From: an uncultured archaeon | Lineage (GTDB): Archaea > Thermoplasmatota > Poseidoniia > MGIII > CG-Epi1 | DNA: 64,000 nt | Reading direction: 5' to 3' | NCBI GenBank assembly: GCA_964578995.1 | Contig: CAZOEZ010000001.1 | Span: 19,627-83,626 of the forward strand | Part shown: positions 38,973 to 53,506 of the stretch, piece after piece | Layout of the letters: each line of letters opens with the position of its first letter | How positions within the stretch are numbered: the first letter of the stretch is position 1 | Notes under the pieces: generated by a model | Database searches by the model: none | What the model saw: only the letters and a program-made list of their open reading frames with translations | What the model was told of the DNA's origin: nothing | Translations under genes and position numbers: made by a program

Positions 38973-41900
38973 TTACTCGAGGGGGACTAAATCTATTTGG
39001 CAGCTATCTGTCAACCCAGCATCTGCTAATGATAAATTAACATCTACTGACGCTCCATTGAGCATAACTGCAAAATTTGAATGTGGTAATTGGAACTTAT
39101 CAATACAATTCTGCAACAATTTGTTAACAGGCATATTAGAAGGCACCTTGACATTTGCAGTCTTACCATCTACTGTGGATACTATAACAACTCCAATCTT
39201 AGAAGGTACTCCTTCATCGGGTTCGTCAATTTGACCATCACCATCATTATCTTTGCCATCTGATCCTTGAATACGAGCTCGCCTTCTTCTGACAATTGGA
39301 ATTGCGACCATCATAATCACTAGTCCAACTCCTGCCAAGAATGGCCAGAGTAATGGTACTCCCTTAATCAATTCTCTTTCCTGCAAGTCTGAAATGAATT
39401 CAATTTCTCCAAGAACTGCAGGCAATACCAGAGGTATAGTTTCCATATGCTCATCATTATCTGTGCCACCGCCTAAGATAGACTCATCACAAGTATTACA
39501 TTGATTTATTTCAAAACTACCACTTCCAGCATCAATAGTAAAAGTCAAATCAAGTTCATCCTTATTATCCTCATCTGGAACAGTCCAAGTGAATTTTACT
39601 TCAGTTGTATCTCCTTCGTTAATTGATTCACCTACTGAACTAGTTAATTCAGTACCTGTACCATCCTCAAACACAACAGTTAACGGTTTACTACTAATTT
39701 GCCAATCTGCATTACCTATATTCTCCAAAGTAACCGTTATCTCAACATCTTCTCCAACCTCAGGATTACGCGGATCCATTGCAACTTTCTTAATTTTGAA
39801 ATCTGGTAATATTTCGAATTTTACTTCTTTACTACTCTGTTCGAACACACCGGAACGTGGATACTCATTGTCTGTATAACGACCTAATTCGTCAAACATG
39901 CGATCTGTCTCGCCTGAAAAACCATCACCATCTGATTCACATTCGAAGTCTTGTATATTGTAATCGTCACAAATTGGATTGACTTCAGCTCTGAAAGTAG
40001 TCCATTCTTCCTCTGTTGCCTTCCAACGGAATCTTACATCTGTTGTTTCACCTGCATCGACATCAAAGTCAACATAATCTTTGTTTGTACGATCCTTGAG
40101 GATTTCATTATCTGCACTGCTATCTGCTGTGATATACAACCGAGCGCCCTGAACATCTGCAGCTCCAGTATTACTTACAGTAACTGTGAACGTTACAATA
40201 TCATCAACATTTGGTGTCTGTGCACTAGAACCTGCATATTTGGTATCTACTCTCATTGCATCTATAGCAAGATCAGGTTTTACTCTTAATAATTCCGAAT
40301 AACGTGCATCATTATTGTTCTCATTAGGTTCAAGTATCTCTCCATTATCGTTATCCTCATCATAATCTGAACGAACTTCGACATACCATTCTCCACCCTC
40401 AATCAACCAATCATCCGAAGCAACAGTCTTTTGGTTATTGGACTTGATATTCGTTGTCTTGTCATAAAGTGACTTGATGTATCCCTTTGCTTCATCCAAC
40501 TCAAAACCAGCTATCATCAATGCGTCAATCTCATTTTGGGTTTCAGGTGATTTCTTAGGATAATAGAAAATCTCAACACGGACGTCATCTGCATCTGCAG
40601 TACCTATATTCTCAACATCAACTAAGATAACAACGGTGTCTCCATCCTGAACCTGAGAAGCATTACCTATTGCACCATCAATCTCTAAGAGAATATTAGA
40701 TTGTTGAATAGTAAGTTCGGGCCTCTGCACAATTACAGTTAATGTAAGATCTTGAGTGGCACTAGGGTCGTCCTCTTCATCTCTAACTGATATCTGTATG
40801 GTGTAATTACCTTCGTCGGCTTCATCGGCAACTTCAACAAACACCCAAAGATCATCAAGCTCACCATCTTCAATAGATAGACCTGATGTTGTTGACCACG
40901 GTGAAGATTTAGAGCTGTCCTGCCAGTAAGTAACTTCCCAATCATCGTCTAGTGTGGAGACTGTTTCAGGTATGAATATATCTGGATTAGACCCTGTATT
41001 ATCCAATTTAACCTTAAATTTTACACTATTCTTCGTAGCTGAACCCTCATATTCAGGATAAATTTCCTGAACAAGATCAATAGCTGTAGCTGCCAAACTC
41101 CTTGTTGGAGCTGCAATATTGATTGTAACAATTGTAGTACTCTGTGTTTCTTCTTCAGCGTTTCTGACGGTGATAGACATAGTATAATTACCTTCATCGA
41201 CCACATCTGCATCTACTTCAGCAATAAACCAGAGTGATTTACTTTGATCTTTCTCTAAAGCTTGACCCGTAGCACTCCATTTATCGCTTGAAGAACCTGG
41301 ATTACCTGAATTCTTTGTAAAGAAATCTGATTCCCAACCAGAACCGAGAACATTGTCTAATTCTGCTGTAAATTTATCGTCGTGTGAACCTGTGTTAGTT
41401 ACAGTAATCTTGAAACGAGCTGTGTTCTTTTCTTCATTGTCTATTTCAGGAGATAAAGTAACTTCTTCTTCACCTGATGTAACTGATAAAGTTACTGCAC
41501 GTATTGGTTCTCTTACATCCAATGTAGTTTCTGCTTGAACCGCTGGTTCTGCTCCATTACCTGCAGATGCCTCAGTAATAACTGTGTAATTGCCAGCCTC
41601 TGAATCCACATCCGGTGTTATACAAAGATAAAGATATTTTGATTCTCCTGCACCAATGCTACCTGAGAAACTACCGCTTGAACATGAAGCAGAAGTGAAT
41701 ATAGAAACTGTCCACTCATCAGGATATGACGTAGCAACTGTTTCAACATTTACATTATCGTTTCTGTTACCTGTATTGACCAATTTGAGAGTGAATTTCT
41801 CTCTACGATCGTTTGCACTATCTTCTGTTGAAGGATAAGTAATAAGTGTATCACTACCAACTACTGTAAGACTAGCGCCATAAATCTGACCTATCTCTGT

Positions 41901-44693
41901 TGTCAATGTAGTAATCGCACTCTGTGCTAAATCACCAGCAGATTTTGCCTTAACCTGAAATTCATACTCAGCGGACGAGTCTTCAAGCGCGTCTCTTTCT
42001 TGAGCTGATAAGTTGTCTAAATCATATTCTGGTAATGCACAAGTTATGGTTATAGTTGCAGTGGCATCCTTTGCTAATTCAACTTCTGCAGGATTTGCTG
42101 TTACCCAATTAAGGTTATCTGAAAGTATAGATATCAAAATTGTATCCGTACCATCTCCTGTATTCTTAACATCTACACTGAAAACAGCGGAAGAACCTGG
42201 AATCTTCTCAATGGCCACTACATCTGCATTAATCTCGACACCGCGAGAAAGCTCAACTTTAACTGTCAAAGTTAAAGCGTCCTGTGATTTAGTTCCGTTC
42301 GCACAATCATCACAATTGGAAACTCCTGAAACATTTACAGAATAATCACCTTTTTCAGTTCCCTCTGGAACTGTTATTGAAAGCCCGACTAATCCTGTCT
42401 TCCCTTCCTGAACATTAAGGAAAGATGTGTTGAATTCTAGGGCAGTCCATCCAGACGGTGCTGTAACGGACATTGCAACAATATCATCTCCTGTTCCCAA
42501 ATTTTCTACACTTATAGATACGCTAACTGGAGTTCCAATAATTGCATCTACAGTACTGGAATCAACTGAAAGATCAATCCAATATTCTTGGTTAACAATA
42601 GTTGTAACGGCTACTGTAGTATTGACCCACTTTGGTGGATTTTCATCGGCTGCACCGAGTGAAGATGCTGTAATATTAGTCGTAAATGCCTGATTTTGCT
42701 CACCGGAAGGAATAGTGATAGTCAGATTAACTGTCTTTTCACTACCGGCAGCAACATCTTCGACATACTCTGATTCAAGTTGAACTATCCAATTTACAGG
42801 ATAATCATCAATCGAAAGTTTGAAAGAATCGGAACCAGTACCTTTGTTCTGTACCCTCATAGGATATATCAATTCAGAACCAGGATCTCCAGCCTTAGAA
42901 GAAACAATCATGTCAACTTTATACTGCTTATTTACAGAAACTGTAACTGAACTAGTATCATAAGCTGATGAAGAATCTTCTGAAGTTCCATTAACAGTTA
43001 TTATATTGTCACCAACGACTGCGTCTTCATCAATATTCACGGTCAGATTAACAGTTGTGCTTTCACCCTGCTCTAAATCTACATCTTCAACAATTGATCC
43101 CCAAGAGGCCATCTCTCCTTCAAGAGATAATGCAACTGTATCATCTGAATTACCTTTATTCTTTACTGTAATTGAATAACTTAATTGATCGCCGGGATCT
43201 CCTGATTGAGTTGTATCCCCTGAAACAGAAACAGATACTTCATAAATCTGATTAACGTTAAGAAAGACATCACGGTATTTACTAGTAGTTGCATCCTCTG
43301 ATGTCGCCTTGATAGTTATTTTATATCCATTTTGAGCCGATGTATCCTCTGGTGCTGTAACTCTCAAAGTTGTTGTTGTATTTGCTCCAGCTGCGAGGGT
43401 AAATGATGATTCACCTAAAGTACCCCAAGTAGCATTTAAACCTGTTAGAGACAATGAGATTTCATCTTCTCCATTGCCCTCATTTTCAATTGTTAAATTA
43501 TAAGTCACTTCGATTTCAGGATTGGCAGACTGGGTATCTCCACCAACAATCGTAATTTTTGGATCATAGTTTTGCAATACTGTTGAACGCGATGTAAATG
43601 TTTTGAAAACTGAAGTGTTCTCTTGTGACGATACCTTAACCTGTATAGTAGCAACAACATCTGCTGCCGCATCCTGTGGTGCCTTAACAACCAGTACATC
43701 TGTCAAAGTGATATTCTCATCAACACCAAGACTACTTACCTCATCATTGTCCAAAGAAGCTTCCCAACCTGTTGGTACACCGTCAGTGACTACAGACAAG
43801 TCAAAAGAGTCAACCGCATTACCCTTATTTGTCACCTTAAACGAATAATATACGCGCTTTCCAGCCTCAATATCCTGCGCACTAGAACCTACCTTTGTAA
43901 CCTCAAGTGCAGGCAATTGATTAACACGAACTGTAACTGAAATCGAATATGCCGTCTCCCCATCCTCTGAATTAGCATAGAAATTTATACTTTTCAATCC
44001 TGCAAGAGCTTCGATGTCTGGTGTAACACTGAAAGTAACTGTTGCTGATTCATCTTGATCTAAACTTACTGAACCTGGGAGCGTAAACGACCAATCGCTA
44101 GTACCAACTGAATCTTGAGAAAATGTTATGGTATCTTCAGTATTTCCTTTATCATTGACAACTGTAATCGAAAAAGTTGCATCATTATTAGGATCAACAC
44201 TGATTTGTGTTGTTCCTGCTGACAGTGAATTTCCATATATTTTCTTAACTTTAGAACTACCTGCTGCAGTTTCGTTATTGCTAGATTCTCCTGCTGACTG
44301 ACAATATACTGTAAATTGTTTAGTTTGACCGCCTTCTGCATTAGTCCTATTTCCTATCTCAACATAAAGTGTAACTGTTCCTGTAGATTCGTCACTAATA
44401 CTAATCTGGCTAGGAAGAATATACATTTCCCATCCTGTCGGAATTGTTGATGACATTCCTAAATTATATGTGTCATCTTCTGTACCATCATTATCGATTG
44501 TTACTGTATAAGTTAGTGTGTCTTCAGGTTCACCTTCTTGTTGTGTAGGAGATATTGTAACTGCATGTTCATAATCTACAGCCACAGCTCCGCCTGAGAT
44601 TAATACACAGAATAAACCTGCCATGACAAATGTCAAGGCGATTGCTAGCCAATTGGTTTGGTTTAAGCTCATTGCTATTTCCATCCATTTCAC
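38973..44693 (-). CDS. giant cell-surface adhesin-like protein (about 15 CARDB/DUF11-type Ig-like domains) with a C-terminal TM and a ubiquitin-like cytoplasmic tail
   Basis: 1906 aa with a signal peptide. It has recurrent V-x-N-x-G-x-x-x-D modules (ITVKNKGNSDDT, VDVKNTGDGTD, VDVENIGTADADD and others). The TM is LLWPFLAGVGLVIMMVAIPIV, followed by RRRR and a 75-aa beta-grasp-like tail. Confidence 0.7.
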   Translation of the reverse strand: MKWMEIAMSLNQTNWLAIALTFVMAGLFCVLISGGAVAVDYEHAVTISPTQQEGEPEDTLTYTVTIDNDGTEDDTYNLGMSSTIPTGWEMYILPSQISISDESTGTVTLYVEIGNRTNAEGGQTKQFTVYCQSAGESSNNETAAGSSKVKKIYGNSLSAGTTQISVDPNNDATFSITVVNDKGNTEDTITFSQDSVGTSDWSFTLPGSVSLDQDESATVTFSVTPDIEALAGLKSINFYANSEDGETAYSISVTVRVNQLPALEVTKVGSSAQDIEAGKRVYYSFKVTNKGNAVDSFDLSVVTDGVPTGWEASLDNDEVSSLGVDENITLTDVLVVKAPQDAAADVVATIQVKVSSQENTSVFKTFTSRSTVLQNYDPKITIVGGDTQSANPEIEVTYNLTIENEGNGEDEISLSLTGLNATWGTLGESSFTLAAGANTTTTLRVTAPEDTSAQNGYKITIKATSEDATTSKYRDVFLNVNQIYEVSVSVSGDTTQSGDPGDQLSYSITVKNKGNSDDTVALSLEGEMASWGSIVEDVDLEQGESTTVNLTVNIDEDAVVGDNIITVNGTSEDSSSAYDTSSVTVSVNKQYKVDMIVSSKAGDPGSELIYPMRVQNKGTGSDSFKLSIDDYPVNWIVQLESEYVEDVAAGSEKTVNLTITIPSGEQNQAFTTNITASSLGAADENPPKWVNTTVAVTTIVNQEYWIDLSVDSSTVDAIIGTPVSVSISVENLGTGDDIVAMSVTAPSGWTALEFNTSFLNVQEGKTGLVGLSITVPEGTEKGDYSVNVSGVSNCDDCANGTKSQDALTLTVKVELSRGVEINADVVAIEKIPGSSAVFSVDVKNTGDGTDTILISILSDNLNWVTANPAEVELAKDATATITITCALPEYDLDNLSAQERDALEDSSAEYEFQVKAKSAGDLAQSAITTLTTEIGQIYGASLTVVGSDTLITYPSTEDSANDRREKFTLKLVNTGNRNDNVNVETVATSYPDEWTVSIFTSASCSSGSFSGSIGAGESKYLYLCITPDVDSEAGNYTVITEASAGNGAEPAVQAETTLDVREPIRAVTLSVTSGEEEVTLSPEIDNEEKNTARFKITVTNTGSHDDKFTAELDNVLGSGWESDFFTKNSGNPGSSSDKWSATGQALEKDQSKSLWFIAEVDADVVDEGNYTMSITVRNAEEETQSTTIVTINIAAPTRSLAATAIDLVQEIYPEYEGSATKNSVKFKVKLDNTGSNPDIFIPETVSTLDDDWEVTYWQDSSKSSPWSTTSGLSIEDGELDDLWVFVEVADEADEGNYTIQISVRDEEDDPSATQDLTLTVIVQRPELTIQQSNILLEIDGAIGNASQVQDGDTVVILVDVENIGTADADDVRVEIFYYPKKSPETQNEIDALMIAGFELDEAKGYIKSLYDKTTNIKSNNQKTVASDDWLIEGGEWYVEVRSDYDEDNDNGEILEPNENNNDARYSELLRVKPDLAIDAMRVDTKYAGSSAQTPNVDDIVTFTVTVSNTGAADVQGARLYITADSSADNEILKDRTNKDYVDFDVDAGETTDVRFRWKATEEEWTTFRAEVNPICDDYNIQDFECESDGDGFSGETDRMFDELGRYTDNEYPRSGVFEQSSKEVKFEILPDFKIKKVAMDPRNPEVGEDVEITVTLENIGNADWQISSKPLTVVFEDGTGTELTSSVGESINEGDTTEVKFTWTVPDEDNKDELDLTFTIDAGSGSFEINQCNTCDESILGGGTDNDEHMETIPLVLPAVLGEIEFISDLQERELIKGVPLLWPFLAGVGLVIMMVAIPIVRRRRARIQGSDGKDNDGDGQIDEPDEGVPSKIGVVIVSTVDGKTANVKVPSNMPVNKLLQNCIDKFQLPHSNFAVMLNGASVDVNLSLADAGLTDSCQIDLVPLE

Positions 44694-50429: not shown

Positions 50430-50452
50430 ACCGTATGTTTAAATATTAAATA

Positions 50453-51223
50453 GTGTTAGTAGGTGGTAAAGGGATTGCCATGGATAGTGAAGCAGAACAA
50501 AGCACGGGAATGTCCGGCCAAATAGAAGATTTGATTGTTGATTTAGGTAATGAACGTTTTATGACTAGACATGAGGCATTGAACAAGTTAAGAGATATGT
50601 TACCATCTCATGAAAAAGTAATAGCAACTGAATTAGTAAGGTGGATCCAACTCTACGGAAAATCGGATGCTGGTAGTAGTGCTTCCTTCGTAAACAAGGC
50701 CGCTATGGACTTATTCCAAGGAATGACTGAAATGGGATTAGAACCCTTAATCAATGAAGGTTTAACCGAAGGTGATTTCTATGCAAGAAGGAGTGTTATG
50801 GATGCTATTGGAAGAACCGGTAGAATGTCTGTTCTACCATATTTGATTGATGGAATAGAAGATAGTGACAGATATACTAGATGGCAAGCTGCAAAAGGAC
50901 TAGGACGATATGCTGGTTCAAGTGAAGCACGAGAAGCTCTAGTCAAAGGTTTAGCTGACAGTGACCCCTATGTAAGAAGAAGGGCTGGACGCTCTTTAGA
51001 GAAATTTGGTGGCGTTGGCCCTAGTGAAGACAAAGTTGAAGGACCAATGGAAGAAGAAGATGGTGACATTGACGGAGATGGAATACCAGATTCTCAGGAT
51101 GAAGAACCCAGAATAGCAGATTATGATTCAATGACTGTGCCACAACTCAAAAAGGCCCTCAAAGAAAAAGGATTAACCGTCTCAGGTAAGAAAGCTGATT
51201 TGATAGCTAGACTAAAAGAATAG
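50453..51223 (+). CDS. HEAT-repeat (PBS-lyase type) protein with a C-terminal SAP domain
   Basis: 256 aa with HEAT-like repeats (DPYVRRRAGRSLEKFG and others) and a C-terminal SAP motif TVPQLKKALKEKGLTVSGKKADLIARLKE. Confidence 0.55.
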   Translation: MLVGGKGIAMDSEAEQSTGMSGQIEDLIVDLGNERFMTRHEALNKLRDMLPSHEKVIATELVRWIQLYGKSDAGSSASFVNKAAMDLFQGMTEMGLEPLINEGLTEGDFYARRSVMDAIGRTGRMSVLPYLIDGIEDSDRYTRWQAAKGLGRYAGSSEAREALVKGLADSDPYVRRRAGRSLEKFGGVGPSEDKVEGPMEEEDGDIDGDGIPDSQDEEPRIADYDSMTVPQLKKALKEKGLTVSGKKADLIARLKE

Positions 51224-51225
51224 AA

Positions 51226-51882
51226 TCATTCTTCTACATCTCCTTCTATTTCAGATTTAGAAGCTGTTACCACCCCTGGAGTAGGTTGAGAATTAGGGGG
51301 TGCAACTTTAACATTAGAATTCTTGGATTTAGTAGTAACATCGTTCATAGAAAGCAAGGCTATTTCTCTTTTATCAAACCAGAAAATGAAACAAGAAGGA
51401 CAGGAATCTATTGTAACAGATTTTTTCAGTTTTCCATGTTTTAAATCTGCGGCTAAATCAACTGTCAACATCACGGCACCAAAAAATTCACCTATTATCG
51501 GAATTCCACGGGCAAAAAATCCCAGATTTTTTGAAGGATTCAGCATTGCTTCCTCCTGCTTTGCCATGTGTCTACCTCTTTTGTAAAATAGTTCAATTTC
51601 AACCATAGTTTTACTACATTTGGGACAGGCAAGTGAACCAAGGCTACCAGAACTCAGAGTTTCCCATAACTTGTTTTTCCTCAATTTATTGAAGCTTTTT
51701 ATTCCTTTATTTTCAAATGTTTTAAGTTCGTCTAGGCTTATCATAATTCCTTTGCATTTCTTACAGTCAGTTCGTTTTCTCATTCCATATTCTAAAGTTC
51801 GCCCGTAGCGTAGGTTTCCACAACCCCTTGGACAGGGCATCTCTTTCAAAGGCTCTTCTTCAAATCTAACGACTTTTGCCAT
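51226..51882 (-). CDS. protein with two zf-TFIIB-like zinc ribbons
   Basis: 218 aa. First ribbon: CPRGCGNL...CKKCKG. Second ribbon: CPKCSKTM...CPSCFIFWFD. Confidence 0.5.
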   Translation of the reverse strand: MAKVVRFEEEPLKEMPCPRGCGNLRYGRTLEYGMRKRTDCKKCKGIMISLDELKTFENKGIKSFNKLRKNKLWETLSSGSLGSLACPKCSKTMVEIELFYKRGRHMAKQEEAMLNPSKNLGFFARGIPIIGEFFGAVMLTVDLAADLKHGKLKKSVTIDSCPSCFIFWFDKREIALLSMNDVTTKSKNSNVKVAPPNSQPTPGVVTASKSEIEGDVEE

Positions 51883-53296: not shown

Positions 53297-53506
53297 ATGT
53301 TAGGCATTATTTCATGCCCCAAATGCAAACATGTTTGTGGAGTTGATTTAGACTACAAAAGTAAAAAATGTGCAAAATGTGATTATAAAATGAAGATTAA
53401 CAAAATAAGAATTTGGGTAAAAACAAATGATAACTTAGACTTACCTGAATTAATAAATAAAGTTAAAAAAGAAATAGCTGAACCTTCTATATCTTTAGAT
53501 TATTGA
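53297..53506 (+). CDS. small zinc-ribbon protein
   Basis: 69 aa (CPKCKHVCG...CAKCDYKM). Confidence 0.4.
   Translation: MLGIISCPKCKHVCGVDLDYKSKKCAKCDYKMKINKIRIWVKTNDNLDLPELINKVKKEIAEPSISLDY

Follow-up and report, generated by a model that had tools for sequence, protein, structure and literature searches.

A HEAT-repeat protein of Marine Group III archaea with an exchangeable SAP or HhH-like C-terminal module

The HEAT-SAP gene and its upstream element

The DNA analyzed here (the window) is a 64,000-nucleotide stretch of contig CAZOEZ010000001.1 from an uncultured archaeon of the CG-Epi1 lineage of Marine Group III (MGIII), within the Poseidoniia. It contains a forward-strand gene whose product joins a HEAT-repeat solenoid to a C-terminal SAP domain through an acidic linker carrying a DxDxDG motif, and in some orthologs a different small helical module, one with an (HhH)2 type of fold, takes the place of this SAP domain. 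The gene and its parts lie at the following positions of the window.

50435..50456, no strand assigned: putative intergenic promoter element ATGTTTAAATATTAAATAGTGT, 22 nucleotides (nt), with a TATA-like box TTTAAATA at 50438-50445; it contains the GTG at 50453
50480..51223, plus strand: coding sequence of the HEAT-DxDxDG-SAP protein, 247 residues, with a TAG stop at 51221-51223 (from an open reading frame scan and the conserved ATG)
50486..51001, plus strand: HEAT-repeat alpha-solenoid, residues 3-174, about nine helices (Pfam, AlphaFold2 and Foldseek)
50744-50998, plus strand: segment matching Pfam HEAT_2, residues 89-173
51062..51112, plus strand: acidic loop G-D-I-D-G-D-G-I-P-D-S-Q-D-E-E-P-R, residues 195-211, within a flexible linker of residues 175-213
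51119..51220, plus strand: C-terminal SAP domain, residues 214-247, basic with an isoelectric point (pI) of 9.5 (Pfam and AlphaFold2)

The mechanically called open reading frame (ORF) spans 50453..51223 (+), and its product ends in DYDSMTVPQLKKALKEKGLTVSGKKADLIARLKE. The initial annotation took this whole span as the gene; the ORF is present as described, but its start must be moved to the ATG at 50480, since the GTG at 50453 lies inside the putative, non-coding promoter element, distant orthologs have CTG in its place, and the ATG is kept in all orthologs compared, including a 95% identical protein (P0001) that begins there.

The 22-nt element, with the consensus ATGTTTAAATATTAAATA(G/C)TGT and two overlapping TATA-like boxes, separates the HEAT-SAP gene from a divergent GDPD gene. 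It is nearly invariant in 14 MGIII loci, where it is found 20-45 nt upstream of the conserved ATG, and the flanking intergenic DNA has diverged. Its sequence suggests that it acts as an archaeal promoter with a TATA box and B recognition element (TATA/BRE), probably a compact one that works in both directions. When the window was scanned against Rfam and for tRNAs, two tRNAs were the only finds, and neither is near the HEAT-SAP gene.

Domain organization of the HEAT-SAP protein

An AlphaFold2 model built on 27 orthologs, with a mean predicted local distance difference test score (pLDDT) of 81.5, consists of an alpha-solenoid (residues 3-174; pLDDT mostly 87-96), a low-confidence linker (residues ~175-215) and two confident C-terminal helices. 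Within the solenoid, Pfam HEAT_2 (PF13646) matches residues 89-173 with E=6.9e-15 and 55.5 bits (cut-off 27.7), HEAT_PBS scores 25.9 bits (cut-off 20.9) and HEAT 24.5 bits, and the N-terminal ~88 residues form family-specific helices. Foldseek comparison of the full model with the PDB returned alphaRep and designed HEAT/ARM scaffolds as the top matches (E about 3e-5), and these designed scaffolds provide no functional lead. The HEAT repeats reported in the initial annotation are thus borne out by the above-threshold HEAT_2 match, the modeled solenoid and the alphaRep/HEAT structural matches.

The solenoid is probably a protein-binding scaffold and shows no sign of enzymatic features. It shares the HEAT_2/HEAT_PBS repeats, with the consensus D-x-D-x-x-V-R-x-x-A-A-x-A-L-G, with the PBS-lyase-type HEAT proteins (the parent family of alphaRep, and CpcE/F and NblB), and alphaRep scaffolds are the closest structures to it. 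It differs from that family in scoring far below the lyase cut-offs, and in having the family-specific N-terminal segment and the DxDxDG and SAP tail. A relationship to the HEAT subunits of condensin or cohesin (Cnd1, HAWK) was considered and rejected, as the Cnd1 match (E=0.17, 12.3 bits, cut-off 26.4) reflects generic HEAT similarity only. No signal peptide or transmembrane segment is apparent on inspection of the protein sequence by eye.

The C-terminal SAP motif proposed from the sequence is well supported. Pfam SAP (PF02037) matches residues 214-247 with E=2.1e-13 and 49.9 bits (gathering cut-off 23.9), over positions 1-34 of the 37 in the profile, and the SAP scores of the orthologs that carry it are similar. 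AlphaFold2 places two helices at residues 220-229 and 238-246 (pLDDT about 86-89) on either side of the loop K230-G231-L-T-V-S-G236, and 13 positions of the domain are invariant across orthologs, among them L223, L227, L232, G236, L241 and L245. In the PDB, the best sequence match comes from the Tho1 SAP domain of yeast (1h1j, E=1.5e-4), with similarity that reaches into the lead-in ADY-S-TV-QLK, and the closest solved relatives by sequence are the SAP domains of Tho1, MKL1 and Ku70. As in the eukaryotic SAP proteins (Tho1/SARNP, Ku70, PIAS, SAF-A), the terminal SAP helix-loop-helix is flexibly linked to a larger domain; in contrast to them, the host is an archaeon, SAP is paired with a PBS-type HEAT solenoid and follows an invariant DxDxDG loop, and orthologs may carry an HhH-like module in its stead.

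The linker (pI 4.05) had been described as poly-acidic, and an acidic stretch EEEDGDIDGDGIPDSQDEE is indeed present, but it is more than poly-acidic in that an invariant DxDxDGxxDxxD motif lies inside it. The segment G195-D-I-D-G-D-G-x-x-D-S-x-D-x-x-P-R211 is invariant in 27/27 aligned SAP-form orthologs (columns G195, D196, I197, D198, G199, D200, G201, D204, S205, D207, P210 and R211), and every HhH-form sequence that we read has the same acidic motif. Residues D196-I-D198-G-D200-G201-I-P-D204-S-Q-D207 fit exactly the pattern of thrombospondin-type-3/DxDxDG calcium loops. The Pfam TSP_3 match to the linker is weak (E=0.0098, 16 bits, cut-off 25) and confined to a single repeat, and the pLDDT of the loop is low (48-59). 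To judge by its residue pattern, the loop is probably a divalent-cation site.

Distribution of the family

A homolog search of 5.8 billion proteins returned 191 homologs at E<=1e-3, all of them marine in source. The family is present in 30 species-representative genomes, titled Marine Group III euryarchaeotes, CG-Epi1 lineage or Candidatus Poseidoniia; one of the 30 records carries the label Thalassarchaeaceae. When 1.84 billion representatives at 50% identity were searched exhaustively with a profile, the only full-length family members among the top 150 matches were P0080 (SAP form) and P0121 (HhH form), together with fragments, and the rest of the 150 comprised long HEAT proteins of a generic kind. 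Within the reach of these searches, the full-length family is narrow and MGIII-specific. A viral origin was rejected, there being no relatives on viral contigs in IMG/VR.

All loci examined have the same syntenic slot, with a GDPD gene (-), the HEAT gene (+) with its variable C-terminal module, and a class-II aminoacyl-tRNA synthetase (aaRS) gene (-).

Exchange of SAP and HhH-like cassettes among orthologs

Two classes of ortholog occupy this slot: proteins of ~250 residues that end in SAP, and proteins of 312-335 residues that lack it. In the longer form the acidic motif is followed by a lysine-rich tract (16 K/R in 40 residues) and then by a ~70-residue module, '...DDLKxIKGIGPFLEEKLNALGIYTYEQISKMTPELEDQVNEAIEFFPGRIKRDEWVKQAK'. 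The 107 sequence clusters divide into 60 SAP and 47 HhH, and the species representatives into 18 SAP, 10 HhH and 2 truncated by contig ends. The C-terminal 35 residues of the window protein, whose absence from orthologs the initial annotation had taken as a sign against the SAP assignment, are thus missing from about 40% of them (47/107 clusters, 10/28 species genomes). Rather than having simply lost the SAP domain, those orthologs have a different small helical module, of the (HhH)2 class of folds, in its place, and this speaks for the C-terminus as an anchoring cassette that is functional and can be exchanged.

On a neighbor-joining tree of the shared N-terminal ~200 residues, SAP and HhH tips are interspersed, and parsimony counts 10 module switches compared with a mean of 35 under random assignment. 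Pairs with different modules can be 93-97% identical in the N-terminal part. One such pair (P0030/P0060) has ~96% DNA identity to mid-gene and ~80-85% from there onward through the module and into the aaRS gene, on a contig that is short and of low coverage and could be a chimera. An assembly chimera was rejected as the source of the swap because the pattern is reproduced on long contigs of metagenome-assembled genomes (MAGs): L029 and L031 (~85-90% DNA identity), and L006 and L004 (~75-90%), are collinear with only the module-coding segment replaced. When 370 kb of MGIII DNA was scanned in six frames with hidden Markov models, neither remnants of the alternative module nor additional copies turned up. 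Paralogy was likewise rejected; there is one copy per locus, and since both classes are in an identical syntenic slot they are orthologs or alleles. We conclude that the two alternative C-terminal cassettes have been passed repeatedly between MGIII lineages by homologous recombination at their conserved flanks. The presence of two unrelated small modules in one position implies a shared, exchangeable role.

A sub-clade (P0052, P0061, P0064 and P0065) has an extra tail '...DDSLHSNFGGGFG' after the SAP domain. P0065 has the tail without SAP, and may be a third C-terminal variant or a deletion.

The HhH-like module is of the COG3743 type. NCBIfam matches relate it to the C-terminal extensions of alphaproteobacterial NuoE (PRK12373, 4.5e-20), S2, L21 and the phasin PhaH, and in JGI its stand-alone versions go by the COG3743 name, 'predicted flap endonuclease-1-like 5' DNA nuclease'. 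Pfam HhH models match it only below threshold. The (HhH)2 assignment is supported at moderate Z, with mitoribosomal mL85 as the best structural match, and this (HhH)2/SAM-like fold class covers DNA binders, ribosome binders and protein binders (NusA AR, SAM domains). The module is found in only two solved entries, at about 1e-13: 8yy9_O, the RC-LH1 protein-O of Dinoroseobacter shibae, and 9wqv_a. The module that extends NuoE, S2, L21, PhaH and RC-LH1 protein-O is thus the one that substitutes for SAP in about 40% of the MGIII orthologs, and it resembles the SAP of the window protein in being attached promiscuously to protein ends by a flexible linker. The window's own protein does not contain it. 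The module is mostly bacterial, yet it also occurs on its own in marine Thermoplasmatota, in which stand-alone proteins of 80-130 residues that are 60-80% identical to the module of the HEAT form are common. Examples consisting essentially of the module are as follows.

L043:5001-5282: stand-alone HhH-like protein P0295
L044:5001-5303: stand-alone HhH-like protein P0297
Further examples: P0298, P0320, P0283 and P0307

These stand-alone proteins are possible donors of the cassette.

SAP domains elsewhere in the Poseidoniia

The initial annotation held SAP to be rare in archaea, and for the Poseidoniia this does not stand. A query with the SAP domain alone recovered further proteins with much the same signature, and a closely similar SAP is present on ribosomal protein eL32 in more than 60 marine contigs. 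The loci concerned are listed here.

L042:5001-5324: P0350, 107 residues, with an N-terminal COG3743 HhH-like module and a C-terminal SAP (Pfam 9.3e-11), just upstream of a YchF/OLA1-type GTPase gene
L045:4001-4207: P0404, a 68-residue ORF with an acidic N-terminus and SAP, starting at the S3Ae stop codon (overlapping TGATGATGATG)
L046:4001-4658: first SAP-eL32 locus
L048-L119: SAP-eL32 loci from the metagenome scan, for example L048:1501-2154, L049:1204-1860 and L105:1501-2250

The eL32 fusion came to light through P0411, whose gene is situated between those for L6 and L32e in the main ribosomal-protein operon. Analysis of the reading frames in two error-prone assemblies suggested a split SAP-L32e fusion, with L047 too error-ridden to serve as sole proof. 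Scanning metagenomes with the reconstructed SAP-L32e sequence gave 73 loci, of which more than 60 match essentially the whole SAP-acidic linker-L32e query, and the ORF is uninterrupted in 22/22 loci translated, on contigs with a GC content from 0.39 to 0.62. The product matches Pfam SAP at 4.3e-16 and Ribosomal_L32e at 3.3e-34. Its SAP domain is 71% identical to that of the window protein over 34 residues and sits on a D/E-rich linker of ~40-90 residues. There are two readings of P0404: its translation may be coupled to that of S3Ae, or a frameshift in a long-read assembly may have broken up a single fusion gene.

The eL32 fusion and the small SAP proteins P0350 and P0404 therefore resemble the window protein in having nearly the same SAP domain, in the same class of organisms and on an acidic tether. 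They differ in cargo, which is a ribosomal protein or nothing in their case and a HEAT scaffold in ours, and the SAP domain is N-terminal in eL32 but C-terminal in the window protein.

SAP is commonly regarded as a defining feature of chromatin proteins in eukaryotes. It emerges here as a recurrent, mobile module in abundant uncultured marine archaea, on a HEAT scaffold, on eL32 and in small stand-alone proteins. The HEAT+SAP architecture was not found in the searchable literature, in which we also found no paper mentioning both SAP and L32e and nothing directly relevant on HEAT+SAP in archaea, on COG3743 or on MGIII CG-Epi1. As far as we found, the combination of HEAT, DxDxDG and SAP or HhH is undescribed, although it is built wholly from known domains, and the orthologous cassette exchange and the SAP-eL32 fusion are the more notable by-products of the analysis. 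The repeated exchange of SAP and HhH at one locus is a natural experiment that suggests functional equivalence of the two modules there, and it offers a way of learning what the COG3743 module does, a module carried widely in bacteria (NuoE, S2, L21, phasin, RC-LH1 protein-O).

Possible roles of the HEAT-SAP protein

We favor, with a probability of roughly 0.4, a role as a nucleic-acid-anchored HEAT adaptor in which the C-terminal module rests on double-stranded DNA (dsDNA), making the protein a chromosome tether. The chromatin or nucleoid tether proposed in the initial annotation is thus a plausible hypothesis. The protein would be a cytoplasmic adaptor specific to MGIII archaea. The C-terminal module (SAP here, the lysine-rich tract and HhH-like module elsewhere) would bind dsDNA without sequence specificity, and the anchored module would hold the HEAT scaffold, together with a protein partner carried on the HEAT surface, on the chromosome; the acidic DxDxDG tether would give reach and possibly cation-dependent control. 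Double-stranded DNA is favored as the anchor target because of what is established for these two kinds of domain. SAP domains are well known to bind DNA, are best documented as dsDNA binders and typically bind AT-rich or scaffold-attachment dsDNA, and both module classes are known to bind nucleic-acid backbones; each of the alternative modules here is basic or accompanied by a lysine-rich tract. The two modules are further linked functionally by their occurrence within one 107-residue protein, P0350. The domain identities, the predicted folds, the distribution of the family, the exchange of cassettes between orthologs and the conservation of the acidic loop come directly from the analysis; nucleic-acid binding, DNA rather than RNA as the ligand, metal binding, and the existence and identity of a HEAT partner we infer. 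If the anchor does bind DNA, these proteins would be candidate nucleoid-organizing or nucleoid-recruiting factors in a lineage whose chromatin biology, to our knowledge, is unstudied.

Several observations count against a DNA tether. No partner can be inferred from gene context, since the HEAT gene is monocistronic and its flanking genes are on the opposite strand. The same type of SAP is fused to eL32 and abuts the S3Ae gene in Poseidoniia, and bacterial NuoE, a phasin and the ribosomal proteins S2 and L21 bear the HhH-like module as an appendage. Associations of this kind would fit binding to RNA, the ribosome or a protein rather than to DNA. What the COG3743 module does is itself described as obscure, and in the solved complex (PMC12079452) the module is not resolved.

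A ribosome- or rRNA-associated factor, in which the module docks the HEAT scaffold on rRNA or the ribosome and the solenoid acts on translation or ribosome biogenesis, would account for the 71%-identical SAP forming the N-terminal domain of eL32 in more than 60 Poseidoniia contigs, for the small acidic and SAP ORF that begins at the S3Ae stop codon, and for the HhH-like module that extends alphaproteobacterial S2 and L21 and finds its best structural match in mL85. Neighboring genes for translation and RNA functions (Pus10, L21e, RpoF, aaRS and PheRS-beta) point the same way, but with these genes on the opposite strand, and with synteny preserved over all 12 kb of the region, their proximity says little. 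Moreover, in both eL32 and the HEAT protein the SAP domain is on a long acidic tether, an arrangement that suits reach off the ribosome surface rather than contact with nearby rRNA, and the fact that SAP domains are best known as dsDNA binders also speaks against this role. We regard it as somewhat unlikely, yet as a serious rival to the tether, since both modules are repeatedly found attached to ribosomal proteins. More doubtful is that the C-terminal modules are protein-protein or complex-docking handles that recruit a soluble HEAT adaptor to a protein complex. The COG3743 module is indeed found on membrane-complex subunits (NuoE, RC-LH1 protein-O) and on a phasin, and the (HhH)2/SAM-like folds include the protein-binding NusA AR and SAM domains. 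Two unrelated modules would, however, have to dock to one and the same partner, the basic SAP domain and the lysine-rich tract accompanying the HhH-like module suggest a polyanionic ligand, and we know of no well-established pure protein-binding role for SAP.

It is very improbable that the HEAT domain is itself an enzyme or lyase (a CpcE/F-type bilin lyase, NblB, or deoxyhypusine hydroxylase-like) to which SAP is incidental. This would make sense of weak NCBIfam matches to CpcE and NblB and of human deoxyhypusine hydroxylase (DOHH) at Foldseek rank 35. The lyase scores are, however, far below the family cut-offs (27.2 bits against 330 for CpcE, 17.1 against 300 for NblB), on which ground that assignment was rejected; the best structural matches are designed binder scaffolds, and we know of no phycobilin system in these archaea. 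A DOHH-like enzyme was rejected as well. The rank-35 match has 18% identity, and the His-Glu iron-binding pattern is absent, as the H-E pairs at residues 30-31 and 44-45 have His replaced by N, S or T in orthologs. The remaining probability we reserve for unforeseen functions.

A wider form of the chromosome tether, which we put forward as speculation and consider distinctly unlikely as it stands, is that the Poseidoniia (Marine Groups II and III) would use a common, exchangeable SAP/(HhH)2-like anchor on an acidic or lysine-rich tether for attaching diverse cargo to the chromosome. That cargo would include the large ribosomal subunit (via eL32), with the HEAT scaffold as a cargo-recruiting arm and the DxDxDG loop as a cation-dependent switch. 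If true, the common anchor would constitute a eukaryote-like, SAP-based system that physically organizes ribosomes and adaptors on archaeal DNA.

Neighboring genes and other features of the window

The genes around the HEAT-SAP gene are archaeal informational genes, including those for archaeal-type Pus10, L21e, RpoF/Rpb4, DUF655, a class-II aaRS, PheRS-beta, PriS and RNase HII. Immediately downstream lies a convergent gene.

51226..51882, minus strand: double Zn-ribbon protein, 218 residues (Zn_ribbon_TFIIB PF13453, 6.7e-07), with a central hydrophobic segment

This neighbor was noted in the initial annotation and is present, but it is not a conserved partner of the HEAT-SAP gene. It is a lineage-specific insertion placed exactly between the abutting 3' ends of the HEAT and aaRS genes, confirmed only in the closest relatives of the window (L009-L011); L001-L007 lack it, their HEAT and class-II aaRS genes being directly adjacent. 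Missing from most orthologous loci, it was rejected as a functional partner.

Two further genes of the window were noted in passing. Between the aaRS and PheRS-beta genes is a small, conserved Cys-rich ORF of 69 residues (53297-53506, plus strand; CPKC...CAKC); most related loci examined have a called gene of this size in the corresponding place, and the homolog on L001 has a weak DUF1922 match. At 38973-44693 on the minus strand is a gene for a 1906-residue protein with repeated Ig-like/CARDB/NPCBM_assoc/DUF11 domains, which has homologs at the same position in related loci and whose repeats suggest a surface protein. Its C-terminus (residues ~1836-1903) gives ubiquitin-like matches just over the cut-offs, with 27.2 bits for Rad60-SLD (cut-off 23.8) and 24.3 bits for TUG-UBL1 (cut-off 23.3).

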